Shown here piece by piece: positions 2,819 to 46,830 of a stretch of 64,000 nucleotides of DNA (positions are counted from its first letter, which is position 1; the number at the start of each line of letters is the position of its first letter). Source of the stretch: Phycisphaerae bacterium (GTDB lineage Bacteria > Planctomycetota > Phycisphaerae > SM23-33); NCBI GenBank assembly GCA_049975485.1, contig JBNGDC010000001.1, forward strand, positions 144,996 through 208,995. Reading direction: 5' to 3'. Both the position numbers and the translations under genes were made by a program. Under the pieces are notes generated by a model that was not told where the DNA came from, did no database searches, and saw nothing but the letters and a program-made list of their open reading frames with translations.

Positions 2819-3024
2819 TGACCGCGGGCGACGTGTCAATCTGGGCCTTGTATCTGGGGTTGCTGCTGCTGCCGCTGACGGCCGGCGTGCTGGCGGCGGA
2901 GTCCGTGGCGGGCGGTCGGTCCATGCCGCGTGCGGCGCGGGTCTGGTCGTATATCGGACGGGGGCTGGCGATTGTCGCGGCAGTGTGTTTTGCGGCGGCA
3001 GCTCTGCTGTACCTGCTGGGATAG
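2819..3024 (+). CDS. possible small two-TM membrane protein (hypothetical)
   Basis: A GTG start gives VTAGDVSIWALYLGLLLLPLTAGVLAAE...AIVAAVCFAAAALLYLLG, with two hydrophobic helices. There is no homology call; this could be an artifact. Confidence 0.2.
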
Positions 3025-3076
3025 ACCGCGCCGACAAGCGCGTTGCTACGCCTGTTTCATTACCCGCTCACTGGCG

Positions 3077-3120
3077 TTCGCGGCCAGCCGCGAGCGGCAG
3101 CGAGCGGAAATGCCGGCTTG
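3077..3120. repeat. 34-bp intergenic repeat with nested hairpin, copy 1 (family shared with 26780-26840)
   Basis: TTCGCGGCCAGCCGCGAGCGGCAGCGAGCGGAAA matches 26797-26830 at 31 of 34 positions. The inner palindrome is CGCGGC-CA-GCCGCG and the outer arms are CCGCTC and GAGCGG. It sits between convergent genes. Confidence 0.6.
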
Positions 3121-3232
3121 TTAATTGGTTAGCCAGTCATCCTCGCGAGGCGAGCAAACAAGTTGCTCGCCCTGCGGCCTATCACGATTGTTCGATAACT
3201 TGTCGGGCAAGTATGACCGACCGACGAGCTAT

Positions 3233-3270
3233 CTATTGCCTATTGCCTATTGCCTGCTGCCTACTGCCTA
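3233..3270. repeat. tandem heptanucleotide repeat (CTATTGC/CTRCTGC) x5.5, equal to (AGGCARY)n on the thuA sense strand
   Basis: CTATTGC CTATTGC CTATTGC CTGCTGC CTACTGC CTAC. It abuts the thuA stop codon. It is the reverse complement of the 20021-20097 array. Confidence 0.7.
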
Positions 3271-3996
3271 CTCTTCGAACCAGCCCATGGGTTTGTTGGG
3301 CGCGCCCAGCGGCATGGTGCCGGTCGGTGCTATCCAGCGGACGGCGTTGGTAATCACACGCAGCACCTCCGGCTGCTTGTAGATGGGGAAGGTCTCGTGC
3401 CCGGGCCGGAAGTAGAACACCTTGCCCGCGCCTCGCGTCCACACACAGCCGCTGCGGAATACCTCTCCGCCGGCGAAGCTGGAGATGAATATCTGTTCGT
3501 CCGGCTGGGGGATGTCGAAGTGCTCACCGTACATCTCGGTGTGCTCGATGATTATGCACTCGCCGATGCCCTCGACGATCGGATGCCCCGGCCGCGTGAC
3601 CCACAGCACCTCGCGCTCGCCGACCTCGCGCCACTTGAGCTGACAGGTGGTGCCCATCAAGCGCTTGAACGGCTTGGAGAAGTGCCCGCTGTGCAGCACT
3701 ATCAGCCCCATGCCCTGAAGCACCCGCTTCTGCACGCGGTCCACGATTTCGTCGGACACTTCCCCGTGTGCCATGTGGGCCCACCAAAGCAGCACGTCGG
3801 TGTCGTCGAGCTTGTCGTCCGTAAGGCCGTGCTCCGGTTCGTCGAGCGTAGCGGTGCCGGCCGTGATGCCTTCCTGCGCATTCAGATGCTCGGCGAGGCA
3901 GGCGTGGATGCCGTCGGGGTAAACCTTCCTTACGGCCTCGTCCTTCTTCTCGTGGCGAAATTCATTCCAGACTGTGACGCGAATGTCCTTACCCAT
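3268..3996 (-). CDS. ThuA-like (trehalose utilisation / class-I glutamine amidotransferase-like) protein
   Basis: 242 aa. The N-terminus [27 protein letters not shown] and overall length fit the ThuA family. Confidence 0.55.
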
Positions 3997-4342: not shown

Positions 4343-6892
4343 ATGGAGAGACCCTTGAACCGAAACGGCCTTTTTACCCGGTATGCCTGCATAGTAGCCG
4401 TTGTGCTCGTGACCGTATCGGTGTCCTGGACGCAGAACGCGTCACCCGTTGAGGTCGAAGACGGCTTTGCCCAACGTTTCGAGGCCGGCAAGCTCTGGCG
4501 CGACGGCGTCGATATGGCGATGGAGGGGGACTTCTCCGCCGCCTTGCAGAAGGTGCGCAGGGCGGCCGAGATAGACCCCGACGACGAGTACATCGCCGCC
4601 GGCGTGGAGTGCCTGGATGAGTATGTATCCCGGCGGGAGCGGTTCGAGACCGAGCGACGGCTGGAATACTCCGATGCCGTCCGTCGCGTTCGCAGGGGCA
4701 TGCTTGCCCAGGAGTATCTGCCCAAGCTTGCCGCCGCCGAGCTGCATGAGCCCCTGCGCAAGAAGGTCGAGCAGGCCATCATCGAGCAGTACAACTCCGT
4801 CAACAGCGCTTCATCGCTTGATGAGCTTTCCGAGCAGGAGGCGCTGGATCTCAGGTCCGAAGTCATCGCCGTAACGGAGAAGATGTCGGCCGGTGTGGAC
4901 CAGGCCGTCGCCATGCTCGACGGCGACGACAGTGAATACGCCCGTCAGTTCGCCGAGGCCGCCGAAGAAGTCTCCTACTACATTCGGGTGTACCGCAACG
5001 GCTGGCGGGGCGTGCGGCTTGAATCCGCCGACGACCGCGCAAAGGCCGCCGATGTCCTGGCGGAGGTGGAGGACAAACTGGCAGACGCTATCTCCGAGCT
5101 GGAGATGATGGTGGATAAAAAGCCCTGGCGGCGGGCGCTGTCGCAGGGAATCCTGGCGAGAGAGCTGCACCGCAAGGACAACGGCCCGCTTGACGGGAAG
5201 GATTGGTACAACGAGTTGATAGCCCTTGCGGAGGAGCACGCCGAGCAGGCCGTCGCCGACGCCGAGTGGTACGACGCAGCCGCCGCGTACAGCGGCCTGG
5301 AGGAGTTGACCGGCGGCAACGGTCTCTACGAGCAGCAGATGGATCAGGGCCGCAGGCACGTTAGGGTGCTGGGGCTGTATGGCGAGGGCAACCCCGAGAG
5401 CGATACCCAGCCGGTGGATAACACCTGGCAGGAACTGGTAGCCGGCGCCGACGCGAACATGGTTCGCGAGGCCATCCAGCGCCTGGACCAGTATTACGTT
5501 GAGGCGGTGGACTATCGGGACCTGGCGAACGGCGCGCTGCTGGCGATGGAGGTGCTCGCGGATACGCCGCAAGCGGCCGAGAGCTTCGAGACGCTCAACG
5601 ATGAGGAGAAACGTCAGCAGTTCCTCAGCGCCATAAGGAGCATGCGGGAGAACATCGCCGACAAGCAGCAGGTAGGCACGCTGGACCTGCTGTTCATGCT
5701 GAATCACGTGCTGAGGGAATCCGACCGCAGCGTAAAGCTTCCGGCCGAGGTCATCGCCGTGGAGTTCGCCGACGGGATGCTCAACGAACTGGACAAGTTC
5801 AGCTCGATGATCTGGCCGCACGACCTGGCCGACTTCGAAAAGCACACGCGCGGGCATTTCTACGGCGTCGGCATCCAGATTACCAAGGAGATCGGCGAGC
5901 CGCTGGAAGTGGTGACCCCGCTGGCGGGCACGCCGGCGTATCGGGCCGGCATCAAGCCGGGCGACGTCATCATCGCCGTGGACGGCCGCCGCACCGAGGA
6001 CCTGGGCATAGACAAGCTCGTGAGAATGATCATGGGCGAGGAGGGCACGCGAGTGACGCTGAGAATAGAGCGTCCCGGGCGTGTCAAGCCGTTCGACGTG
6101 ACACTCACGCGCGACAAGATCACCATCCGGACGGTCAAGGGCTGGCAGCGTGTGAACGACGAGGGCTGGCAGTACCTGGTGGGCCAGACCGACGGTGTCG
6201 GCTACGTGCGGTGCAGCCAGTTCAGCGAGCAGACGGTAGAGGAGCTTACCGAGGCGCTGGAGCAGGTCAACGGCGACGAAGTGGACGCCCTGGTGCTTGA
6301 CTTGCGGTGGAACCCCGGCGGGCTGCTCAGCTCGGCCGTCGAGGTCGCCGACGAGTTCCTCAATGACCACCGCAGGATAGTCTCCACCAAAGGTCGCCAG
6401 GCGCGCTACGAGGAGCGGTCGGCCAGCCCAAGGGGCGAGTATCTCGACAAACCGCTGGTGGTGCTGGTGAACGACGCCAGTGCATCGGCCGCCGAGATCG
6501 TCGCCGGCGCCCTGCAGGACTGGGACCGGGCCATCGTGGTCGGCGAGCGGACCTACGGAAAGGGCAGCGTCCAGCACGTAATCCGCATACGTCCCGAACG
6601 GTCCATGCTGAAGCTGACCACCGCCTACTACTACCTGCCGCATGGCCGGCTGCTGCACAGGGTCAACGGCAAGGACGAGTGGGGCGTGGCCCCGGATATC
6701 GAGGTCCTGATGACTCCCGAGCAGACCCGCCGCTGGCTGGAGCTGCGACGGGAGACCGACCTTATTCAGGATATCGAGCCGGAAGAACTGAACCGCGAGC
6801 TGTCCAGGCAGTACGAGGCCGACCTGCAGCTACAGACCGCCGTCGTGCTGCTGAAGCTGATGCGACTGGACGAGCAACGCTCCGCGGCTTAG
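4343..6892 (+). CDS. S41 family C-terminal processing peptidase with PDZ domain and a long N-terminal extension
   Basis: The C-terminal half has a PDZ (GIKPGDVIIAVDG) and an S41 core (LDLRWNPGGLL, VVLVNDASASAAEIVAGALQD, GERTYGKGSVQ). There is an N-terminal signal/TM segment, and about 450 aa of Ala/Glu-rich helical sequence precede the protease. Confidence 0.8.
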   Translation: MERPLNRNGLFTRYACIVAVVLVTVSVSWTQNASPVEVEDGFAQRFEAGKLWRDGVDMAMEGDFSAALQKVRRAAEIDPDDEYIAAGVECLDEYVSRRERFETERRLEYSDAVRRVRRGMLAQEYLPKLAAAELHEPLRKKVEQAIIEQYNSVNSASSLDELSEQEALDLRSEVIAVTEKMSAGVDQAVAMLDGDDSEYARQFAEAAEEVSYYIRVYRNGWRGVRLESADDRAKAADVLAEVEDKLADAISELEMMVDKKPWRRALSQGILARELHRKDNGPLDGKDWYNELIALAEEHAEQAVADAEWYDAAAAYSGLEELTGGNGLYEQQMDQGRRHVRVLGLYGEGNPESDTQPVDNTWQELVAGADANMVREAIQRLDQYYVEAVDYRDLANGALLAMEVLADTPQAAESFETLNDEEKRQQFLSAIRSMRENIADKQQVGTLDLLFMLNHVLRESDRSVKLPAEVIAVEFADGMLNELDKFSSMIWPHDLADFEKHTRGHFYGVGIQITKEIGEPLEVVTPLAGTPAYRAGIKPGDVIIAVDGRRTEDLGIDKLVRMIMGEEGTRVTLRIERPGRVKPFDVTLTRDKITIRTVKGWQRVNDEGWQYLVGQTDGVGYVRCSQFSEQTVEELTEALEQVNGDEVDALVLDLRWNPGGLLSSAVEVADEFLNDHRRIVSTKGRQARYEERSASPRGEYLDKPLVVLVNDASASAAEIVAGALQDWDRAIVVGERTYGKGSVQHVIRIRPERSMLKLTTAYYYLPHGRLLHRVNGKDEWGVAPDIEVLMTPEQTRRWLELRRETDLIQDIEPEELNRELSRQYEADLQLQTAVVLLKLMRLDEQRSAA

Positions 6893-7017: not shown

Positions 7018-7099
7018 GCCCCTTCGGGGCTGAGTGCATTATTGCCCCGGACTTCCGGGGGCTGACGCCCCCGGCTATTTCCTGTCGGCCCTTCGGGCC
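7018..7099. other. cluster of GC-rich tetraloop hairpins between convergent genes
   Basis: GCCCC-TTCG-GGGC (7018-7030), CCCCGG-ACTT-CCGGGG (7045-7060), GGGGGC-TGAC-GCCCCC (7057-7072, overlapping the previous one) and GGCCC-TTCG-GGCC (7087-7099). No U-tracts follow. Confidence 0.4.
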
Positions 7100-7182
7100 T
7101 GTTGTGATGCACATGCACTGACTGTCAGCCGGCTCAAGTATGCGTTCGAAGTATTGGGCATCCTCAAACTATTAATCGCAAG

Positions 7183-12631: not shown

Positions 12632-12646
12632 TCTCGCATCCGGTAT

Positions 12647-12678
12647 CTGGTTGTCTGGTTAATCGGTTAACTGGTCAA
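12647..12678. repeat. tandem octanucleotide repeat (CTGGTTRA-like) x4
   Basis: CTGGTTGT CTGGTTAA TCGGTTAA CTGGTCAA, sitting between the M16 peptidase gene and the cyclodeaminase gene. The same family occurs at 21601-21633 and shares the GGTTAACTGGT core. Confidence 0.6.
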
Positions 12679-12682
12679 CCGG

Positions 12683-15484
12683 CTACGGCTCTACGTCCTC
12701 CGGCGCCGGCGTGGTGATTACGGTGGTGTAGCCGCCGCCGAGATACTTCTCGCCGGCGCGGAGCACGTCCTCGGGTGTAACGTCGCGGTACACTTCCTGC
12801 AAGCGGCTGTGGAAGTCGTACCCAAGCCCGTAAAGCTCGTTCAGGGCCGCGTTCATGGAAAGCGCGTCCATGGACTGCTTGCCCAGAAGCTCGGCCGTGA
12901 GAATGATGTTGACCGCCTCCTCGACTTCCTGCGGGGTGGGCTTGTACTGCGACGCTCGTCGCAGGTTGCGGCGGATGGTCTCAGCGACCTCCTGCGCCTC
13001 GGAGGGTTGGCAGACCGCGTAGGTCATGAACGCCCCCGGCAGCAGACCGGGCCAGTTGTACGCGTGCACAACGTACACCAGCTCGCGGCCGCGAAGCTCC
13101 TCGTGCAGCCAGCCGCTGGGAAGGCGGTATCCGCTGATGATGGTGTCAAGAACGTCGATGGCGGCCCGGTCTTCGATGTTGGTGAACACCATTCCGGCAG
13201 CGCCCACCACCACGGCCGAAACCTGTTTCTCAGTCTCCTTGACGAACGTCCTGTCCTCTTGTGGCACGTCCGGGCCGGAAACGTTGGGCAAACTGACCTC
13301 GCCCTCGGGCAGGTCCGCGAACAGGCCGGTTATCAGCTCTCGGGCCTCGTCCGCATCGAAGTTGCCGTACACCGCCAACACACTGGAGCCGGCTTTGACG
13401 TGCTGTTCGTGCCAGTCGGCGAGTTTTTCGGCGGTTGCTTCGGCGAGCACCTCCTGGCGGCCCGGGGACAGGAGCCGGTAGGGGGAATCCTCGAAAAAGC
13501 TGCCACGGAAGAACTTCTGCCCCTCCGCGAGGACGTTCTCGTCGATTTGGCGCGAGGCCGCTATCGCGCGCGGTCGAAGGATCTCCAGCTCCTCTTCGGG
13601 GAACGTCGGGTGCTGCACCACGTCCGCCAGGACGGCGACGGCCTCGGAGAATTCGCTCTCCAGCACGCTCGCCTGCCAGTAGAAGGTGTTGTTTCCGCAC
13701 TGGGCGTCAAGCTCGCCGCCGGCGGCGTCGAAGAACTCGGCGATATCCTCGGCCGTCCTGTCCGCGGTGCCCTTGGTGGTGAGGTTGGTCATCAGCGTGC
13801 CGAAGCCGTTGGTGGATTCATCCTCCAGCAGCACGCCACCGGCCGAAACGAAAGTCATGGACACCAGCCCCACGGCCGGATTCGGGCCGAGCACCACCCG
13901 CATACCGTTGTCCAGAGTGAACATTCGCGGCTCGCCGGCACGGGTCTGCCGGTCGGCGGTATCGGCGTCCAGCTCGGCGGCCGGGTCGGCAGGCAGCATC
14001 CGCGTGACCACCATGCGCTGCGGGTCGAGGTACTTCCGCGCGACATCGCGCACCTGCTCGGCCGTCACCTGCTGTATCCGGTCGGTATACCGGCGGGAGA
14101 AGTCCGTCTCGCCGGTGGACAGGTAGTCTCCGGCCAGGGTCGCCGAGATGGACTCGACCGTCTGCAGCGAACGGACGTAGTCGGCGACCTTCTGGCGCTT
14201 GGCGCGGTCCAGCTCATCCTGCGAGACGCCTTCTTCCCGGATGCGGGCCAGTTCGTCGAGGATGGCCTGCTCGGCGGCGTCGGCCTTCTCCGGCTGGGTG
14301 CGGAAATCTATCGAGAACGGTCCTTTCCCCCACGCCGGCGTCCAGGAGAACGAATCCACGCTCGTGACGAGCTGTTTCTCGCGGCGGATGGTTCTCTCAA
14401 GAAGACTGGCCTCGCCGCGGGTCAGCACGAACGACAGCACGTCCAGCGCGTAGAGGTCGTCGTGGATGAGGGGGATCGTCAGAAAGCTCATCGTCTGCTG
14501 GGCCTCGGTCAGCTCCGCATGCGTGCGGACAACCCGCCGCTCGCCGGCGATTGGCTGAACGTCCGGCAGCGTCAGGTCCGGCTGGCGACCGGCCGAGGCA
14601 CCGGCGAACTGCTTCTGCACCTGCCTGAGCGCCTCGGACACGTCGATATCGCCGACGATGCTCACCACCATATTCTGCGGAACGTACATCCGCCGGTGAT
14701 ACTCGCGGACGTCGTCGATGGTCAGCTCCCGCAGCGGCCGCTCGTATCCGATTACCGGCACGGCCGCGGGGTGCTGGCGGTAGAGGTTCTCCATGTGGGC
14801 CTGCCAGAGCTGCCGGTCGGGGTCGTCGTAGCGCATCTCCAGTTCGCGCTGTACCACGCCGTGCTCGCGGCGGAAGGCGTCTTCGGTGATCTCCGCCCGC
14901 GCGAGCCAGTCCGCCAGCAGCTCTATGCACTGGTCGGTCTTAGCGGCTGTTGCCGAGATGTAATAGCACGTATGGTCGAGAGTGGTGTAGGCGTTGGCCT
15001 GGGCGCCGATTCGCCGGACCCTGTCCACCGGTTCGCGGGTCTCTGTGGCGGCCCCGCCTCCGTCGGGCGAGTCATGCTCGGCCTCGTCGGCCACCAGGTG
15101 CTCCAGCAGGTGGCTTACACCGCAGCCGAGCCACTCGCCTTCGTAAAGTCCGCCCGCCCGCACGTACCCGCGTACGCAGACCACCGGGCTGGTGCGCACG
15201 GACTGCAGTATGACCGTCAGCCCGTTTTCGAGCGTCACGACGGTCACATCGTCTCCGGTATCCATCCGCTCGACGACGGCCGGCGGCTGCGGCTGAGTTT
15301 CTGCTCCGGCCGGCTCGGGCTTGACGGTCTGTGTGGTCGGTGTGCTCTGCTGCCGCGAATCGGCCTCCGCGGCGCCGCTGGTCGCGCAGCCGAAGCTGAA
15401 GACAGCGACCAATACGCCGAACAGCAACACGGGCAGGTTCACAGAGACACTCCGTCCCAAACGTGCGAAGGCATCGGTACTCAT
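12683..15484 (-). CDS. M16 family zinc peptidase, duplicated (pitrilysin-like) fused two-module protein
   Basis: 933 aa with a signal peptide and the inverted zinc motif HLLEHLV...E. It shows M16 N- and C-domain repeats twice along its length. Confidence 0.75.
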   Translation of the reverse strand: MSTDAFARLGRSVSVNLPVLLFGVLVAVFSFGCATSGAAEADSRQQSTPTTQTVKPEPAGAETQPQPPAVVERMDTGDDVTVVTLENGLTVILQSVRTSPVVCVRGYVRAGGLYEGEWLGCGVSHLLEHLVADEAEHDSPDGGGAATETREPVDRVRRIGAQANAYTTLDHTCYYISATAAKTDQCIELLADWLARAEITEDAFRREHGVVQRELEMRYDDPDRQLWQAHMENLYRQHPAAVPVIGYERPLRELTIDDVREYHRRMYVPQNMVVSIVGDIDVSEALRQVQKQFAGASAGRQPDLTLPDVQPIAGERRVVRTHAELTEAQQTMSFLTIPLIHDDLYALDVLSFVLTRGEASLLERTIRREKQLVTSVDSFSWTPAWGKGPFSIDFRTQPEKADAAEQAILDELARIREEGVSQDELDRAKRQKVADYVRSLQTVESISATLAGDYLSTGETDFSRRYTDRIQQVTAEQVRDVARKYLDPQRMVVTRMLPADPAAELDADTADRQTRAGEPRMFTLDNGMRVVLGPNPAVGLVSMTFVSAGGVLLEDESTNGFGTLMTNLTTKGTADRTAEDIAEFFDAAGGELDAQCGNNTFYWQASVLESEFSEAVAVLADVVQHPTFPEEELEILRPRAIAASRQIDENVLAEGQKFFRGSFFEDSPYRLLSPGRQEVLAEATAEKLADWHEQHVKAGSSVLAVYGNFDADEARELITGLFADLPEGEVSLPNVSGPDVPQEDRTFVKETEKQVSAVVVGAAGMVFTNIEDRAAIDVLDTIISGYRLPSGWLHEELRGRELVYVVHAYNWPGLLPGAFMTYAVCQPSEAQEVAETIRRNLRRASQYKPTPQEVEEAVNIILTAELLGKQSMDALSMNAALNELYGLGYDFHSRLQEVYRDVTPEDVLRAGEKYLGGGYTTVITTPAPEDVEP

Positions 15485-17702: not shown

Positions 17703-19949
17703 ATGCAGCTTTTCGAGGATGGGCAATCTGTCTCCGCGGTCGGGCGGCGCGTGGTCGGCGTGGCCGTCAACGCGCACGTCTGGGGCGACTTCGACTATGT
17801 CTGGCCGGATGCTCTCGGCGAGCCACAGCGCGGGCAGCGCGTGCGCGTGCCCTTCGGCCGGGGGGACCGCCGGACGCTGGGCTTTGTCGTGGACCCGTCG
17901 CGGGAAGACCAACGCACGGGCGAGAAGCCCCGCAAGCTCAAAGCGGTAGCCGAGGTCCTGGATGAAGAGAGCCGGCTGACGACAAAACTCTGGGACCTGG
18001 CACACTGGATAAGCCACTACTACCTCGCACCGCTTGGCGTGACGCTGGCGGCTATGGTCCCCTCGGCCGTCGGCCGACGCGGCGAGCGGACCGAGCAGGT
18101 AGCCATTCTCACCAGCGGTCGTTCGGATTGGCCCTCGGCGCTGGGGGCTCGTCAGCGGCGCGTGCTGGATGAGCTTTTCGAGGCCCGCAGACAAGGGGTC
18201 GAGGAGCTTCCGCTCCGCGAGGTACTCCGCAAGAGCGGCGCCACCCGCGACAGCGTCAATCGGCTGGTGGGGCGGGGGCTGCTGCGGCTGGAGAGCCGTG
18301 AGGTCCGCCTGCCGGATATCACCGGCGAGCAGCACGAGCCGCAATTCGAGCTGAACGACGACCAGAAAAGCGTCCTTTCGGAGGTGCAGTCCGTCCTGGG
18401 CGGCGGCTTCCGCGCCATGCTGCTGCACGGAGTCACCGGCAGCGGCAAGACGGAAATCTACGTCCGCGCCATACGCCAGGTGATCGCCGCGGGCAAACAG
18501 GCAATCCTGCTTGTCCCGGAGATTGCCTTGGCGACGCAGACTCTGCATCGGCTGCTGGAACGCCTGCCCCGGGTGGCGGTTCTGCACAGCGGGCTGACCG
18601 ACGCCGAGCGGGCCTTTCACTACGAGCAGATACGCGGCGGAAACGCCGACGTGGTGGTGGGTCCACGCAGCGCCGTGTTCGCACCCACGCCGAATCCGGG
18701 GCTCATCGTGGTGGATGAGGAGCACGAGCCGTCTTACAAGCAGGACACCGCTCCCCGCTACCACGGCCGCGACACCGCCGTTAAGCGCGCCTCGCTGGAG
18801 GACGTTCCTATCCTGCTCGGCTCGGCGACTCCGTCGCTGGAGTCGCTGCACAATGCCCGTCGCGGCCGCTACAAGCTGCTCCGCCTGCCGAACCGCGTCC
18901 GTGGGTTGCCCATGCCGCATCTGGAAGTGGTCCACCTGCGCAAGGAGCTTGAGCCGGGCCGTATAGAGCTTATCGGGCGGACGCTTACGCAGAAGATGGC
19001 GGCCGCCCTGGACCGCCGCGAACAGATTATCCTGCTGATGAATCGCCGGGGTTACGCCAGTCACGTATTCTGTCCGTCGTGCGGGTGGATCATGACATGT
19101 CGTCACTGTACGCGGACGATGGTGTTCCATCAGGCGACGCAGATGGCGGTCTGTCATTACTGTCAGCAGTCGGCGCCTTTGCCGGAGGTCTGCCCGGCGT
19201 GCAGGGGCAAATTGCTGCTGTTCGGCTACGGTATCCAGAGGATAGAGAGCGAACTGGCAAGGAAGTTCCCCGAGGCGGCCTCGGCGAGGATGGACAGCGA
19301 CACGATGACCTCGCCTAAGCAGTTCCGCAAGGTCTTCGACGCCTTCGCTGCGGGGGAGATTGACATACTTCTGGGCACGCAGATGGTCGCCAAGGGGCTG
19401 GATTTCCCACGCGTGTCGCTGGTGGGCGTGGTCTCGGCCGACACTTCACTGGCGATACCGGACTTCCGGGCCGCGGAGCGGACTTTCCAGCTTATCGTGC
19501 AGGTGGCCGGCAGGGCGGGGCGGTCCGACAGGCCCGGCGAGGTGGTAGTCCAGACACTGAACGAAGACGAGCCGGCGATACACTTCGCCATCGGGCATGA
19601 CTACGAGGGCTTTGCCGACCAGGAGCTGCCGCTGCGGGAGGAGACGAATCTGCCGCCTTTCTCGCGTCTGGTGCGTTTCCTCATCAGGCACAGGGACGTC
19701 TCAAAGGCCGAAGCCGGCGCCACTGAGCTTGCCAGACGGCTGCGGGGGGTCCTGACGGCGCACGTGGGCATGCTGGGTCCGCAGCCGGCCGGTGTGAAGA
19801 AGATTCGCGACCGCTTCCGCTTCGAGCTGCTGCTGTTCTGCGACCGGCCAGGCTACGTTCAGGACCTGCTCGGCGGGCACATGGGCGAGCTGACAAAGGG
19901 CATAGCGGCCGAGATCGTCGCCGAGCCGGACCCGGTGAACCTGATGTGA
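17703..19949 (+). CDS. priA: primosomal protein N-prime (replication restart helicase PriA)
   Basis: Walker A GVTGSGKTE, DEEHE box, LGSATPS, and a Cys-rich zinc module (CPSCGW...CRHC...CHYC...CPAC). 748 aa. Confidence 0.9.
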   Translation: MQLFEDGQSVSAVGRRVVGVAVNAHVWGDFDYVWPDALGEPQRGQRVRVPFGRGDRRTLGFVVDPSREDQRTGEKPRKLKAVAEVLDEESRLTTKLWDLAHWISHYYLAPLGVTLAAMVPSAVGRRGERTEQVAILTSGRSDWPSALGARQRRVLDELFEARRQGVEELPLREVLRKSGATRDSVNRLVGRGLLRLESREVRLPDITGEQHEPQFELNDDQKSVLSEVQSVLGGGFRAMLLHGVTGSGKTEIYVRAIRQVIAAGKQAILLVPEIALATQTLHRLLERLPRVAVLHSGLTDAERAFHYEQIRGGNADVVVGPRSAVFAPTPNPGLIVVDEEHEPSYKQDTAPRYHGRDTAVKRASLEDVPILLGSATPSLESLHNARRGRYKLLRLPNRVRGLPMPHLEVVHLRKELEPGRIELIGRTLTQKMAAALDRREQIILLMNRRGYASHVFCPSCGWIMTCRHCTRTMVFHQATQMAVCHYCQQSAPLPEVCPACRGKLLLFGYGIQRIESELARKFPEAASARMDSDTMTSPKQFRKVFDAFAAGEIDILLGTQMVAKGLDFPRVSLVGVVSADTSLAIPDFRAAERTFQLIVQVAGRAGRSDRPGEVVVQTLNEDEPAIHFAIGHDYEGFADQELPLREETNLPPFSRLVRFLIRHRDVSKAEAGATELARRLRGVLTAHVGMLGPQPAGVKKIRDRFRFELLLFCDRPGYVQDLLGGHMGELTKGIAAEIVAEPDPVNLM

Positions 19950-20020
19950 CGGGTGTTGGTGAACTCGCGCATTCGTCCATTCGCCGCCTGGCCGCTCAGC
20001 GGCAATGGAACGCGGGGATT

Positions 20021-20097
20021 AGGCAATAGGCAGCAGGCAATAGGCAGCAGGCAGCAGGCATTAGGCAGCAGGCAAAAGGCAATAGACAGCAGGCATT
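20021..20097 (+). repeat. tandem heptanucleotide array (AGGCARY) x11 downstream of priA
   Basis: AGGCAAT AGGCAGC AGGCAAT AGGCAGC AGGCAGC AGGCATT AGGCAGC AGGCAAA AGGCAAT AGACAGC AGGCATT. It has the same family and orientation relative to the upstream gene as 3233-3270. Confidence 0.75.
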
Positions 20098-20100
20098 AGG

Positions 20101-20245
20101 CCATGGCTTCAGCCATGGTAGTGGTTGGCCTGTGCCTATTCACGGTCTTAGCCCGTTTCAACGGGCTTACCGCGGCATGAGGAAGGGCGTTGAAACGCCC
20201 TCAGGCATTTGAAGCGGCAGCATGATACCACGGCTAAAGCCGTGG
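20101..20245 (+). other. array of four short stem-loops (candidate structured RNA) between priA and pheA
   Basis: CCATGGC-TTCA-GCCATGG (20101-20118), AGCCCG-TTTCAA-CGGGCT (20150-20167), GGGCGT-TGAA-ACGCCC (20185-20200) and CCACGGC-TAAA-GCCGTGG (20228-20245). None is followed by a U-tract. Confidence 0.35.
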
Positions 20246-20448
20246 CATCAGGGACTTGCTCGTGAGGCAGGCAGCAAGCCGGTAGGCAATTGGCAGTGGT
20301 CAATAGGAAACCCCGGTTCGACACGAAGCTTACTGACGAGCGGACTGCTCAACGACTCAACTGATCGACTGCTTGACCGCAAGGGCCAACGGGGGCATCA
20401 AAAAACCTTGACCCTGACGGGGGCGGCCGTTACAAGGAACGGTCTTAA

Positions 20449-21588
20449 TTGAGCGGTCCGCTTATGCGCCGGGACCGCTTCGCGGCTTCCATGGTGAAAC
20501 AGAACTCCAACGAGCCAAGGGACCTGGAGTCTCTTCGTAAGCGGATCGACGAGCTTGACCGGAAAATCGTCGAGCTGCTCAACGAGCGCGCCGCGGTCGT
20601 GGTGGAGGTCGGCCGGACCAAGCTTCAGGACGGCACGCCCATTTACGCCCCGGACCGCGAGCAGAGCGTCCTGAGGCGGGTCTCGGAGCTGAACGCAGGC
20701 CCGTTGCCGCAGAGGACGCTACAGGCGATCTACCGCGAGTTGATGAGCGGTTCGTTCGCCCTGGAGAAACCACTGAGGGTGGGCTACCTGGGACCGCAGG
20801 GCACCTTTTCCCACATGGCCGCCCAGCGCAAGTTCGGCGGTTCGGTGGAGTACCGGGACCTTGCGGACATTCGGGCGGTGTTCCACGAGGTCATTCGCGG
20901 CCACTGCGACCTTGGGCTGGTGCCGATTGAGAACTCACTCGGCGGCGGCGTGATAGACACGATGGACTGCTTCATAGACGCAGACGTGAGCATCTGTGCG
21001 GAAGTTGTGGTGGAGATACACCACAACCTGCTGGCAAACTGCCCGCCGGAGCAGATAAAGGTTATCGCCTCCAAGCCGGAGGTCTTTGCCCAGTGCCGTG
21101 ACTGGCTTTCCAGCAGTTTCAACGACGCACAGCTCCTGCCGGTGGCCAGTACGTCCAAGGCCGCCGAAATGGCGGCTTCCGAGACGGGGCTTGCGGCCAT
21201 CGGGTCGGAGCTGGCGGCGGAGCTTTACGACCTGAAGATTGTCTTCGCCAACATCGAGGACAACCCGAACAACCAGACGCGGTTCTACGTGATCTCGCGC
21301 ACGCCGGCCAAACGGACCGGAAACGACAAGACGACGCTGCTTTTTACCACCGCCCACCGCTCCGGCGCGCTGGCGGAGGTGCTGAACGTACTGGCGAAGC
21401 ACGGTATCAACCTTACAAACATAGACACCCGTCCCTCCAAGCGGCGGAACTGGGAGTATTACTTCTTCGCGGACGCCGAAGGGCACTGCGAGGAGGATAG
21501 CTTCGCGGCCGCTCTGGAGGAGGTTCGGGAGCACTGCGGTATGTTGCACGTTTTGGGTAGCTACCCCAAGGCCACCGAGCCGGTATAG
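20449..21588 (+). CDS. pheA: bifunctional chorismate mutase / prephenate dehydratase
   Basis: N-terminal CM (LRKRIDELDRKIVELLNERAAVVVEVGRTK), a PDT domain (VGYLGPQGTFSH, ENSLGGGV, TRFYVISR) and a C-terminal ACT domain. An alternative start at 20491 is possible. Confidence 0.85.
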   Translation: MSGPLMRRDRFAASMVKQNSNEPRDLESLRKRIDELDRKIVELLNERAAVVVEVGRTKLQDGTPIYAPDREQSVLRRVSELNAGPLPQRTLQAIYRELMSGSFALEKPLRVGYLGPQGTFSHMAAQRKFGGSVEYRDLADIRAVFHEVIRGHCDLGLVPIENSLGGGVIDTMDCFIDADVSICAEVVVEIHHNLLANCPPEQIKVIASKPEVFAQCRDWLSSSFNDAQLLPVASTSKAAEMAASETGLAAIGSELAAELYDLKIVFANIEDNPNNQTRFYVISRTPAKRTGNDKTTLLFTTAHRSGALAEVLNVLAKHGINLTNIDTRPSKRRNWEYYFFADAEGHCEEDSFAAALEEVREHCGMLHVLGSYPKATEPV

Positions 21589-21600
21589 GTGAAAAGGTAG

Positions 21601-21633
21601 TTGGTTGACTGGTTGATTGGTTAACTGGTTGAT
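21601..21633 (+). repeat. tandem octanucleotide repeat (TGGTTRAY) x4 after pheA
   Basis: TTGGTTGAC TGGTTGAT TGGTTAAC TGGTTGAT. This is the same family as 12647-12678. Confidence 0.6.
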
Positions 21634-21651
21634 CGGCAGTCTTCGTGAGCG

Positions 21652-21671
21652 GGTCCCGGTGTTCCGGGACC
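21652..21671 (+). terminator. hairpin after pheA (possible terminator, no U-tract)
   Basis: GGTCCCGG-TGTT-CCGGGACC, an 8-bp stem. Confidence 0.3.
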
Positions 21672-36092: not shown

Positions 36093-37520
36093 ATGAGCGT
36101 ACTGACAAACGGCAGACGTGGCGTGGCTCGTAAGAAGCTGTACGATTTTTATAAGGAAGTCATTACGCCCAATGAGCACCTGAACCGGGGTATCGTCAGC
36201 TTTCAGGGGAATAAGCGGGAGCCGTTTTACCGGTGGTTTAAGTACAAGGAGGGGTTTTCCTCTCATCTAGTAGCGTATTTCCTTCAGTCCACAGGTTTAT
36301 CCGAAGGGACATTACTCGATCCGTTCGCCGGCGCGGGTACGTCGTTGTTCGCAGCTCGGGATTCCGGATGGCGGGCCTTGGGAATCGAATTGCATCCTGT
36401 GCCGCTTTTCGCGATAGAGGCACGTCTTGCTGGAGAATCCCTCGACGGGGCCCGCTTCAACCTGGCGGTCGAGAGGGTGGAGAACAGGGCGTACGAGAGA
36501 CAGCCGGAAGATAAACCGGGTTTTCCGCACCTTAACATCACCAGTGGCGCTTTCCCGCCCTTAAACGAGCAACGTCTTATGGCCTACTGGCATTACTGCC
36601 TGAGTCATGTGAAAGACCCGAGTGTGCGGAAGGTCCTGCAGTTTGCCGCGCTTTGTGTACTGGAGGATATAAGCTATACGAGGAAGGACGGTCAGTACTT
36701 GCGATGGGATGCTCGAAGTCCGAAAAAACGCGGTAAAGGCGCGTTTATCAAAGGGCAGATCGCTGATTTTCACGACGCAATCACGGCAAAGCTACGGATT
36801 ATCAGCTCGGACCTGAGGACCTTGTCCGGCAGCGGGCATTTGTTCAGGCCGACCAGACTGACACGCGGTCCGGTGGATATGTGGGAGGGGTCCTGCCTGA
36901 ATGTGCTTCCCGAAATGTCTTCGGATTCGGTGGACCTGGTTGTCACTTCGCCTCCTTACTGCAACCGCTATGACTATACGCGGACCTACGCCCTGGAGCT
37001 TGCATTACTCGGGCGAAACGAAGAGCAGGTGAAAGGGCTGAGGCAATCCCTTCTTTCCTGCACCGTTGAGAATCGCGCCAAGCGCGAGCAGATTAAGACG
37101 GCTTACGAAGCCCGGTCGGGGCGTGAGGCGTTTGATTTTGTAGAGCAATGCTTTGATTCGGTGGATGCATTGCATGAAGTGCTGGAGATTCTCGAAAGTT
37201 TCGGAAGGGACAATGCTCTCAATAACACAAATATCCCGCGAATGGTGCGGAATTATTTCTACGAGATGAGCTTCGTTATCTACGAGCTTGCTCGTGTTAT
37301 GCGGGCTGAAGGAAAGGTAGTTATGGTTAACGACAACGTTCGCTACGCCGGCGAGGAGGTGCCGGTTGACCTGATTCTGAGCGAACTTGCTCGACAGATG
37401 GGCTTTACCGTGGATAAGATATGGGTTCTGTCCAGAGGTAAGGGTAATAGCAGTCAACAGATGGGAATACATGGGCGAAGAGAGCTGCGAAAGTGCGTAT
37501 ATGTGTGGCAAAAGGAGTAA
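36093..37520 (+). CDS. site-specific DNA amino-methyltransferase (N6-A or N4-C), alpha-class motif order
   Basis: Motif I DPFAGAGTSLFAA (aa 77) and motif IV VVTSPPYCNRYDY (aa 289), with about 200 aa between them (candidate TRD). It lies in a low-GC island. Confidence 0.75.
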   Translation: MSVLTNGRRGVARKKLYDFYKEVITPNEHLNRGIVSFQGNKREPFYRWFKYKEGFSSHLVAYFLQSTGLSEGTLLDPFAGAGTSLFAARDSGWRALGIELHPVPLFAIEARLAGESLDGARFNLAVERVENRAYERQPEDKPGFPHLNITSGAFPPLNEQRLMAYWHYCLSHVKDPSVRKVLQFAALCVLEDISYTRKDGQYLRWDARSPKKRGKGAFIKGQIADFHDAITAKLRIISSDLRTLSGSGHLFRPTRLTRGPVDMWEGSCLNVLPEMSSDSVDLVVTSPPYCNRYDYTRTYALELALLGRNEEQVKGLRQSLLSCTVENRAKREQIKTAYEARSGREAFDFVEQCFDSVDALHEVLEILESFGRDNALNNTNIPRMVRNYFYEMSFVIYELARVMRAEGKVVMVNDNVRYAGEEVPVDLILSELARQMGFTVDKIWVLSRGKGNSSQQMGIHGRRELRKCVYVWQKE

Positions 37521-37560
37521 GCACACCCGTGCAACTATGGACGGCGGAGAGAGGTAAAGG

Positions 37561-38532
37561 ATGAGTAACGGGCCCCCCGGCTGCGATGACCAGTTGATTA
37601 AGGCGTTAACCGCTGCCTATACGGCTCGATCCAAACTTTTTCACGAAGGCGTGAGAAGCTGCAATATTGACCTGCTGATAGCGGAGATCGACGCTCTGGA
37701 TTCAGAGAGCTTGTGCTGGGATTTGGGTACTGTGGGAATCTCGGCGACGTCATGGAAGAAAGTGAAGGAAAGTGGAGCCGTTCCGGAGCAGGTCTTTGTT
37801 CATCCGGATGTGATCGTGAAGAACCCGTCCCTGATCGCCTACTACCGGAACATGGCGACCATATCAAACAAGGGGATGGGTCAGCTATTGTTCTCGACCA
37901 TCGGGTATGAGAAGGGCTCGGGTCGGCAGATCGGGCGGGACCGTGCCGAGGAGTTAAGCCGCGTGCTTAACGGAATCATATCCAACGTAATAGACTCGGT
38001 GGCCGACTACGACGTGCAGGTTAGCCGTAAGGCAATCCTAGCCGAAATCGGCGCCCAGCTTCAGGGCACTTGGGCGAATTTGATAGGTCAGGGGGCGACA
38101 AACCAAGTGGAGCAGATAATTCGGGATCACATCGAGCGGCAGGATCGCGGCAGTCGCATCGAATCAGGTAGGTATCATCTGTCAAACGAATGGAAAATCA
38201 TCTTTGGTACCGAACCGGACGTTGCGTTCTTTGACAAAGATGGTCTATTGCGAATGGCAATCGAGATAAAAGGCAGCCTCGACAAGGCCGGTGCACAAAC
38301 GCGCTATGGAGAAGCCAAAAAGTCGTTTGCCAAGGCAATCAAAGAGAACCCGCGCTGCCATACGATTTATCTTGCTTCTTGTTTCACAGAGGCCGTCGTG
38401 GAGCAAATCAAGGCGGATGGGCAGGTCCGTGAGTGGTTCAACCTGACGTCGATTCTATACGACGATGGCGAGCGAGCCCATTTTCTCGAATCGGTTTTTC
38501 ATGTTGTTGATGCGCCATATCGTACCGGCTGA
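37561..38532 (+). CDS. putative type II restriction endonuclease (PD-(D/E)xK-like), partner of the upstream MTase
   Basis: 323 aa. VAFFDKDGLLRMAIEIKGS contains a D...EIK catalytic-like motif. There is no other homology. It is co-directional with the MTase, 40 bp downstream, and has the same low GC. Confidence 0.45.
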   Translation: MSNGPPGCDDQLIKALTAAYTARSKLFHEGVRSCNIDLLIAEIDALDSESLCWDLGTVGISATSWKKVKESGAVPEQVFVHPDVIVKNPSLIAYYRNMATISNKGMGQLLFSTIGYEKGSGRQIGRDRAEELSRVLNGIISNVIDSVADYDVQVSRKAILAEIGAQLQGTWANLIGQGATNQVEQIIRDHIERQDRGSRIESGRYHLSNEWKIIFGTEPDVAFFDKDGLLRMAIEIKGSLDKAGAQTRYGEAKKSFAKAIKENPRCHTIYLASCFTEAVVEQIKADGQVREWFNLTSILYDDGERAHFLESVFHVVDAPYRTG

Positions 38533-46654: not shown

Positions 46655-46830
46655 ACGGCACAGGGCTGGGGTAAGCACGAAATACGAAAACTGAAATCCG
46701 AAACAAGCACGAAGCATCCAAATCCGAATGCTCCAAACCGCGCATCGGCGGCCCCGCTGTTTAGAACATTCGTATTTCGGCTTCAGGATTTGCTTCGGAT
46801 TTAGAGTTTTCGTCTCGCCGGGCGGTTTGC
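46655..46830. other. low-GC intergenic segment rich in CGAAA/TTTCG inverted repeats (candidate sRNA or terminator region)
   Basis: CGAAATACGAA (46678-46688) pairs with TTCGTATTTCG (46765-46775). AAATCCGAA occurs twice and its complement TTCGGATTT occurs once. The local GC is far below the flanks. Confidence 0.35.

Follow-up and report, generated by a model that had tools for sequence, protein, structure and literature searches.

The 64-kb window (the whole stretch of 64,000 nt analysed here) carries two intergenic arrays of tandem AGGCARY heptamers, which are a further sequence family within the known and already partly described class of heptanucleotide long SSRs. The window itself is an ordinary instance of this class; across bacterial genomes and viral contigs, the family follows general rules that go beyond the published ones in sharpness and breadth. 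Replication slippage would make and resize such arrays, and selection would keep them nearly always in coding-strand orientation, at a stop codon or a little past it. The explanation that we prefer, tentatively and at less than even confidence, is that what keeps them is connected with the end of translation. The tract would serve either as an unstructured, UAG-containing buffer or, together with an inverted partner, as a hairpin at the stop codon resembling REP/BIME elements. The searchable literature yielded no paper in which the AGGCARY family is named.

Structure and class of the arrays in the window

A two-unit heptad pattern with at most one mismatch gave 14 matches in the window, compared with 0.34 expected from shuffled sequences; 13 of these fall inside the two arrays (hereafter A and B), and the remaining one lies in a degenerate remnant of the same AGGCA heptad family (GAGGCAGGCAGCAAGCCGGTAGGCAATTGGCAGTGGT, 20264–20300, forward strand). 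Array A (20021–20104, forward strand) follows priA (17703–19949, forward strand; Pfam PriA_3primeBD, DEAD, Helicase_C, and PriA_C), and the gene downstream of it codes for a chorismate mutase/prephenate dehydratase (Pfam). The sequence-only reading had counted eleven heptamers at this site; the array was confirmed, and in register it consists of 12 heptads of the form AGGCA+NN, with AT, GC, AT, GC, GC, TT, GC, AA, and AT as the last two bases of units 1–9 and with three degenerate units at its end (AGACAGC, AGGCATT, and AGGCCAT, units 10–12). TRF reported it at 20020–20101 with a period of 7 and 11.7 copies. It had also been placed immediately 3′ of priA, which is incorrect, as it begins 71 nt past the TGA stop (19947–19949). 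TAG occurs in all three frames within array A, and in two of the three frames the array supplies the first stop past priA; UAG stands ahead of six of the 12 units, and the part that is kept is AGGCA, not UAG.

Array B (3233–3270, minus strand; 5.4 heptads by TRF, period 7) lies at the end of a thuA-family gene (3268–3996, minus strand; Pfam ThuA, 8e−39). Read on the minus strand, it runs as a T followed by AGGCAGT, AGGCAGC, three units of AGGCAAT, and a final AG, again with TAG in all three frames. It belongs to the same family and is in sense orientation, as had been described earlier, and it does more than abut the thuA stop codon, since this TAG (3268–3270) is itself made of the T and the AG of the first unit. 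Both arrays are intergenic, both are in sense relative to the upstream gene, and both are predicted to be essentially unpaired.

A short decayed inverted copy past array A (GCCTGTGCCTATT, 20128–20140, forward strand, 13 nt) pairs with the first units of the array in the predicted fold. Four GC-rich hairpins with stems of 7–8 bp and without U tracts are located at 20099–20245 (forward strand), between array A and a promoter-like region of pheA: one overlaps the last array unit (GGCCATGGCTTCAGCCATGGT, 20099–20119), a second lies at 20150–20167 (AGCCCGTTTCAACGGGCT), and two further ones at 20179–20202 and 20228–20245. Array B is followed after ~60 nt by a GC-rich hairpin that likewise has no U tract (GGGCGAGCAACTTGTTTGCTCGCC, 3149–3172, minus strand). 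On the minus strand, the hairpin past array A (20084–20119) gave a weak sub-threshold match to the Rfam model of the Acido-Lenti-1 RNA motif. The same motif was called elsewhere in the window of this Phycisphaerae-like genome, at 7055–7100 (forward strand), with 57.7 bits against a gathering score of 37; the ORF of an S41/PDZ peptidase (4343–6892, forward strand) ends ~160 nt upstream of it.

The terminator scan called no terminator-like site in 19800–20600 or 2900–3400, and the promoter scan called no promoter-like site at either array. Rfam covariance models gave no match at either array, and over 19900–20500 only sub-threshold matches (E ≥ 0.5) were obtained. An intrinsic terminator was rejected, because the arrays have no structure and the hairpins close to them are without U tracts. 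The sequence-only reading had already set CRISPR aside, rightly so for both arrays, which consist of contiguous 7-nt units without spacers as opposed to repeats of 23–50 nt with unique spacers. A coding repeat was ruled out by stops in all frames, and an assembly artefact by the presence of arrays in independent assemblies.

With contiguous period-7 units, a non-coding location, several arrays per genome, and changes in copy number, the arrays have the features of heptanucleotide long SSRs of the STRR type; the 64-kb window holds two arrays and one remnant, and related genomes hold several arrays per contig. Like the heptamer "long SSRs" of Mrazek 2007 (as summarised in PMC4679880), which include the cyanobacterial STRR1–3 (Mazel 1990), they are tandem 7-nt repeats that are intergenic, dispersed, copy-variable, and phylogenetically patchy. 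They are not STRR1–3 in the strict sense, whose units are CCCCAGT, TTGGTCA, and CAACAGT in contrast to AGGCA+RY in a planctomycete host. The G-rich heptamers described from three genomes by Rehm 2015 (GGGAATC in Xanthomonas, GGGGAYT in Nostoc; PMC4692102), which form quadruplexes in vitro, share the sense placement after stops with the AGGCARY family (array B overlaps its stop, array A lies 71 nt away), but they contain G3–G4 tracts, whereas AGGCARY units have GG only and fall outside a definition based on G3. The TAACTGA repeats of Beggiatoaceae, Cyanobacteria, and Bacteroidetes, for which binders of the S1, Csp, and CsrA types have been proposed and in which forward-orientation stop codons restrict the overlap with ORF ends (MacGregor 2015, PMC4679880), are likewise cross-phylum heptamers with forward stop codons. 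Unlike the AGGCARY arrays, they are mostly located just upstream of start codons, have 2–6 copies, and differ in sequence.

Two other elements of the window were recorded. An inverted-repeat element rich in CGAAAT lies at 46673–46716 and 46765–46810, between an ABC-transporter gene and a PilZ gene that converge. Over a 43-nt core it shares 88% identity with an element at another locus (4274–4447 of L172, a relative treated below), between a response-regulator gene and priA, and it looks like a small dispersed repeat. The region 36093–38532 (forward strand) is an island of low GC content (53%, vs. ~63% for the window) that codes for an N6/N4 DNA methylase and an XcyI-like restriction endonuclease, and it is likely an acquired type II restriction-modification system.

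Orthologous sites and turnover

Look-ups of the exact PriA and ThuA proteins of the window gave no match; the best PriA homologs come from MAGs of Phycisphaerae and other Planctomycetota. In L170 (GCA_046538345.1; 91% PriA identity), an array occupies the same place, likewise 71 nt past the priA stop, with ~8 AGGCA units (spacers GA, GT, AA, AT, GT, AC, AC, and AA) followed by three AGGTCRT units, and both the unit number and the spacer bases differ from those in the window. The two hairpins that follow the array (20099–20119 and 20150–20167 in the window) are conserved in L170, and the 13-nt inverted copy is not. In L171 and L172 (80–81% PriA identity), the priA–pheA synteny is kept and there is no array; the promoter-like region of pheA (20407–20437 in the window) is conserved in both. 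A metagenome scan with PriA retrieved only relatives of at most 69% identity, none of them with arrays; over 292 kb of planctomycete priA loci that had not been selected for arrays, next to no heptad arrays occur.

At the thuA site, the window has 5.5 units, L451 (90% ThuA identity) has two at the same TAG, and L454 (89%) has none. Since the C-terminus of ThuA and the position of the TAG are conserved in orthologs with and without an array, array B grew out of the native stop. In L452 and L453 (86% ThuA identity), the AGGCA array is missing and a (GGAACNN)10 array begins 23 nt past the same TAG stop. This array (8041–8112 of L452, identical in L453) combines an almost perfect 5-nt core with almost random 2-nt spacers and contains no stop codon; eight distinct units occur among its ten, which plain slippage would hardly yield. 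In L451, thuA is followed by a GGCTTCAGCC-centred hairpin similar to those past array A.

Judged from these orthologous sites, the arrays grow from pre-existing gene ends, turn over in copy number in the manner of microsatellites, and are young on the genus scale. Array B would be a young, solitary, and stop-anchored array, and array A an older and degenerate one with only a decayed partner. The sequence-only reading had opposed an RNA-level function to random microsatellites, a contrast that proves false given the 5.5, two, or no units at the thuA site and the missing priA array in the relatives with 80–81% PriA identity.

Within array A, the mismatches per unit position are 0, 0, 1, 0, 1, 7, and 6 (p = 4.5e−5 naive; 0.057 counting distinct units). 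The same concentration of variation in positions 6–7 is seen in L170 (p = 0.004 naive; 0.14 counting distinct units) and in the (GGAACNN)10 array of L452 (p = 1.6e−4 naive; 6.7e−4 counting distinct units). In the lineage of the window, it provides the best argument for a periodic sequence reader. Across genomes, no core-specific constraint was detected, as the units outside the seed runs decay evenly over the seven positions; variation was concentrated in two positions in 5 of 42 unselected arrays, and the signature of a core and a spacer holds only for the Phycisphaerae arrays.

Stop anchoring and inverted pairs across genomes and viral contigs

The family was searched in a species-representative genome collection and in viral contigs with a pattern of four units (three times AGGCARY, then AGGCA). 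At least 120 loci were found in bacterial genomes of more than 10 phyla, the matches including Cyanobacteria, Bacteroidota, Planctomycetota, Acidobacteriota, Chloroflexota, Alphaproteobacteria (Mesorhizobium, Aestuariivirgaceae), and Nitrospirota, and the viral contigs gave 99 stretches. Many arrays are pure (AGGCAGT)n, (AGGCAAT)n, (AGGCAGC)n, or, in cyanobacteria, (AGGCAAC)n, and mixed R/Y arrays such as those of the window are also common. Array-rich isolates among the matches listed include Mesorhizobium loti DSM 2626, M. jarvisii LMG 28313, Orbus sasakiae, Aurantibacter aestuarii, and Terripilifer ovatus. Other heptamers abound at the loci that bear AGGCARY, where 331 of 617 TRF rows show a period of 7. 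A unique cross-phylum motif was rejected, as the viral contigs contain, beside the 99 AGGCARY stretches, 44 of AGCGARY and 19 of ACGGARY, both permutations of the same composition, and at least 120 of AGGGARY.

Anchoring was counted relative to ORFs of at least 100 aa, the genes at foreign loci being taken from our own ORF heuristics and not from annotation. An independent stop lies 0–10 nt upstream in sense for 21 genome arrays vs. one in the antisense mirror arrangement (among the matches listed), and for 22 vs. none in viral contigs; the stop falls inside the first three units in 30 (genomes, among the matches listed) and 51 (viral contigs) cases. The combined count among the matches listed is 43 sense vs. 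1 antisense, and ~80 more arrays supply the stop themselves. This bias is not an artefact of ORF calling, because a ratio of 28:1 within 10 nt holds among the matches listed from genomes with a GC content under 55%, in which long ORFs can be relied on. The fixed sense orientation noted earlier is thus no accident of two cases: over ~290 family arrays from genomes and viral contigs, arrays abut stops almost only in sense, an indication that a constraint specific to one strand acts on RNA or on translation. To this extent the earlier idea of an RNA-level element is supported, while its variant of a terminator substitute is not, given the unstructured arrays and the lack of a terminator-like site. 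The anchored share amounts to 37–49% among the matches listed, half or more of all arrays being unanchored. In convergent intergenic regions, according to our reading of the per-locus distance table, the array usually adjoins the gene with which it is in sense.

Sense anchoring is found for the control heptads AGCGARY (12:0) and AGGGARY (14:3, among the matches listed) too, and there is none in the 19 arrays of ACGGARY, a unit incapable of forming a stop. At the same loci, stop-adjacent arrays of other heptad families have more G than C on the sense strand in 27 cases vs. 5 with the reverse. In gene clusters of viral contigs (L220, L243, and L205), arrays follow the stops of successive co-directional genes. 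Units ending in T create UAG, over three units in all three frames; T-ending arrays stand to C-ending ones as 100:41 in genomes (among the matches listed) and as 109:40 in viral contigs (mean GC 64%), and T-ending units predominate even in the GC-rich genomes among the matches listed. In viral contigs, T-ending arrays are more often stop-anchored (odds ratio 10, p = 5e−4), and in the genome set there is no difference (8 of 40 C-ending vs. 13 of 70 T-ending arrays anchored, among the matches listed). Pure (AGGCAGC)n arrays are also anchored, usually with TAGC ahead.

The window contains a tandem family of another period as well: four TGGTTGAY octamers (21602–21632, forward strand) begin 13 nt past the pheA stop and are followed by a hairpin (21651–21671). 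This family occurs again in reversed orientation (AACCAGNN when read on the gene strand) at 12638–12675, between the stop of an M16 peptidase gene and the start of an FTCD_C gene, both on the minus strand, and is therefore not restricted to sense orientation.

An inverted copy is present within 200 nt downstream of 25–38 genome arrays (among the matches listed) and of 69 viral arrays, and never upstream (94 vs. 0). The same downstream-only polarity is seen in the pairs of AGCGARY (16:0) and AGGGARY (9:0, among the matches listed). As a pair looks identical on both strands, gene orientation alone cannot account for this polarity. Among the strict pairs listed for which both neighbouring genes were called, 24 of 32 lie between co-directional genes, as for example in L181 and L220, and 4 of 32 between convergent ones. 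The near arm starts a few bases from the stop of the upstream gene, and the loop has a median length of 33 nt; the pairs are therefore real long hairpins of 21–35 bp with their base at the stop codon. Behind solitary arrays, no excess of hairpins was found relative to control gene ends (z −0.16 vs. −0.63), so that a spacer before a terminator hairpin is unsupported as a general rule. In three Saprospiraceae loci (L025, L056, and L119) and one of Zoogloeaceae (L109), a canonical bidirectional terminator composed of A-tract, hairpin, and T-tract has (AGGCAGC)n on one side and the inverted copy of this array on the other; with this arrangement, the transcript of each strand would carry an array between stop codon and terminator.

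The analogy with REP/BIME (REPIN) elements, which are likewise hairpins in intergenic regions, either at the 3′ ends of genes or between genes that are transcribed together, is limited to the paired arrays. REPs are said, in work by Newbury from 1987 and by Liang, Rudd and Deutscher from 2015, to stabilise the upstream mRNA and, when located within ~15 nt of a stop, to affect the terminating ribosome. In enterobacteria and pseudomonads, they are imperfect palindromes of 20–40 nt that are spread by RAYT transposases, and not tandem heptamers. Membership of the window arrays in the REP/BIME-REPIN group was rejected, as they are not palindromic and have only the 13-nt decayed inverted copy; the likeness of the paired arrays elsewhere to REPINs is one of function alone. 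A tblastn search with a Y1 transposase found no homolog in the 64-kb window. The contig of L172, the relative with 80% PriA identity, carries a gene for a Y1 (IS200/RAYT-like) transposase at 13483–13944.

Explanations for the retention of the arrays

Slippage accounts for the origin and the variation of the arrays, but not for their anchoring within 10 nt of independent stops or for the polarity of the pairs. Since only the ribosome marks the stop codon, we infer that the selective agent most likely works via the end of translation. The heptad tract is purine-rich, C-poor, and unstructured, and it could act as a stop "trap" in all frames combined with an unstructured buffer, barring ribosomes from the 3′ region. 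Where an inverted partner is present, the array would supply the 5′ arm of a hairpin similar to REP/BIME elements, which would terminate or stabilise the message upstream. The fitness gain from backup stops is expected to be small, and array A, 71 nt away from its stop, and the stop-less (GGAACNN)10 array of L452 both speak against this explanation. So do the large unanchored share, the equal anchoring of C-ending and T-ending arrays in the genome set (among the matches listed), the lack of extra hairpins behind solitary arrays, and the scans that called no terminator-like site at either array of the window.

It is doubtful, in our view, that the arrays are functionless microsatellites which slippage generates everywhere and of which purifying selection removes the harmful ones (arrays in genes or promoters and stop-less orientations overlapping ORF ends), so that the remainder looks oriented. 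Such an origin fits the turnover at the thuA site (5.5, two, or no units) and the absence of the priA array at 80–81% PriA identity, the many families that follow the same rule, and the uniform decay of array edges; MacGregor 2015 (PMC4679880) argues in this way for TAACTGA, and Mrazek 2007, as cited in the same paper, ascribes the excess of heptamers to polymerase slippage. A filter of this kind, however, does not predict anchoring: the arrays with independent stops are 43:1 in sense (among the matches listed), those in convergent regions usually adjoin their sense gene, and ORF ends are too small a target for an anchored share of 37–49%. The dominance of T-ending units in GC-rich genomes, which runs against mutation pressure, and the single polarity of inverted pairs also disagree with it. 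We regard it as unlikely, too, that the arrays are periodic landing pads for a single-strand RNA-binding protein (TRAP-, HutP-, or cold-shock-domain-like), each 5-nt core being recognised by a single subunit or domain of a protein that is oligomeric or has several domains, with two free spacer bases, and this protein acting on the ribosome-free 3′ UTR through stability, antitermination, or localisation. TRAP targets are periodic (G/U)AG triplets and those of HutP are three UAG-N4 units; the UAG of T-ending units recurs every 7 nt, the spacing of HutP sites. Like the arrays, these targets consist of a short conserved core and non-conserved spacers in unstructured RNA; they lie in 5′ leaders and serve antitermination control, whereas the arrays conserve AGGCA, and half of the units of array A have no UAG. 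The variation in positions 6–7 with an intact core in the window's lineage, the (GGAACNN)10 array of L452 (p = 7e−4 even counting distinct units), the predicted lack of structure, and the strand-specific placement are all as a landing pad would have them. A landing pad is harder to reconcile with relatives that have different cores, AGGCA or GGAAC, in the same 3′ region, with several unrelated heptad and octad families in one genome, with array edges that decay evenly across the seven positions and concentrated variation in only 5 of 42 unselected arrays, and with the pure repeats, typical of slippage, that make up most arrays elsewhere.

Two further accounts invoke the base composition of the tract. 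A directional Rho element, which seems to us very unlikely, would consist of a G-rich, C-poor sense RNA that resists Rho loading after the ribosome has left, while the complementary (ACUGCCU)n, which is C-rich and unstructured, would be a rut site on antisense transcripts or on convergent ones that read through, and would protect the gene from invading transcription. The excess of G over C on the sense strand of stop-adjacent arrays of other families (27 vs. 5) and the absence of structure would agree with this. Cyanobacteria are not known to have Rho, and the mostly cyanobacterial arrays of the AAC type are the least anchored of the genome set (among the matches listed), which also counts in its favour. 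On the other hand, the action of Rho does not need a position within 10 nt of the stop codon, purine richness also follows from stop-containing units, and similar heptamers abound in cyanobacteria (our genome matches; Rehm 2015, PMC4692102). That (GG-N5)n folds into two-tetrad quadruplexes, in RNA or non-template DNA, and pauses polymerases or exonucleases is the least credible of these explanations and highly improbable. The arrays do share their period and the sense placement after stops with the quadruplex-forming heptamers of Rehm 2015 (PMC4692102), and GG recurs every 7 nt in AGGCA, GGAAC, and AGGTC units alike; against this, only GG runs are present where the published family is defined by G3–G4 tracts, two-tetrad structures with 5-nt loops are weak, and the lineage of the window keeps the entire 5-nt core and not GG alone.

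Retention through the end of translation thus stays our preferred, if tentative, reading. A far-reaching extension, which we think improbable, is that heptad arrays constitute a general and so far unrecognised 3′-end module of bacterial and phage genes, a purine-rich tract with a 7-nt period that sits at the stop codon and is read by the terminating ribosome or by a heptad-periodic ssRNA-binding protein, with the inverted pairs serving as factor-independent terminators or stabilisers. In that case the anchoring of ~43:1, the polarity of 94:0, and the 5-nt core with a free 2-nt spacer in Phycisphaerae would be the footprint of this machinery, and not of mutation and tolerance. The published rule of sense placement after stops is known from three genomes (Rehm 2015, PMC4692102), and our counts extend it to many phyla and to viral contigs.

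In many bacteria, heptamer repeats outnumber all other long microsatellites, and their role has been in question since 1990. If the arrays are merely tolerated microsatellites, they would offer a clean example of selection at ORF ends filtering the products of slippage. If the anchoring and the single-polarity hairpins reflect function, they would represent a simple, widespread means by which organisms without canonical U-tract terminators, such as planctomycetes, seal the end of translation and shape the 3′ ends of their mRNAs, and would allow a better annotation of operons and 3′ UTRs.
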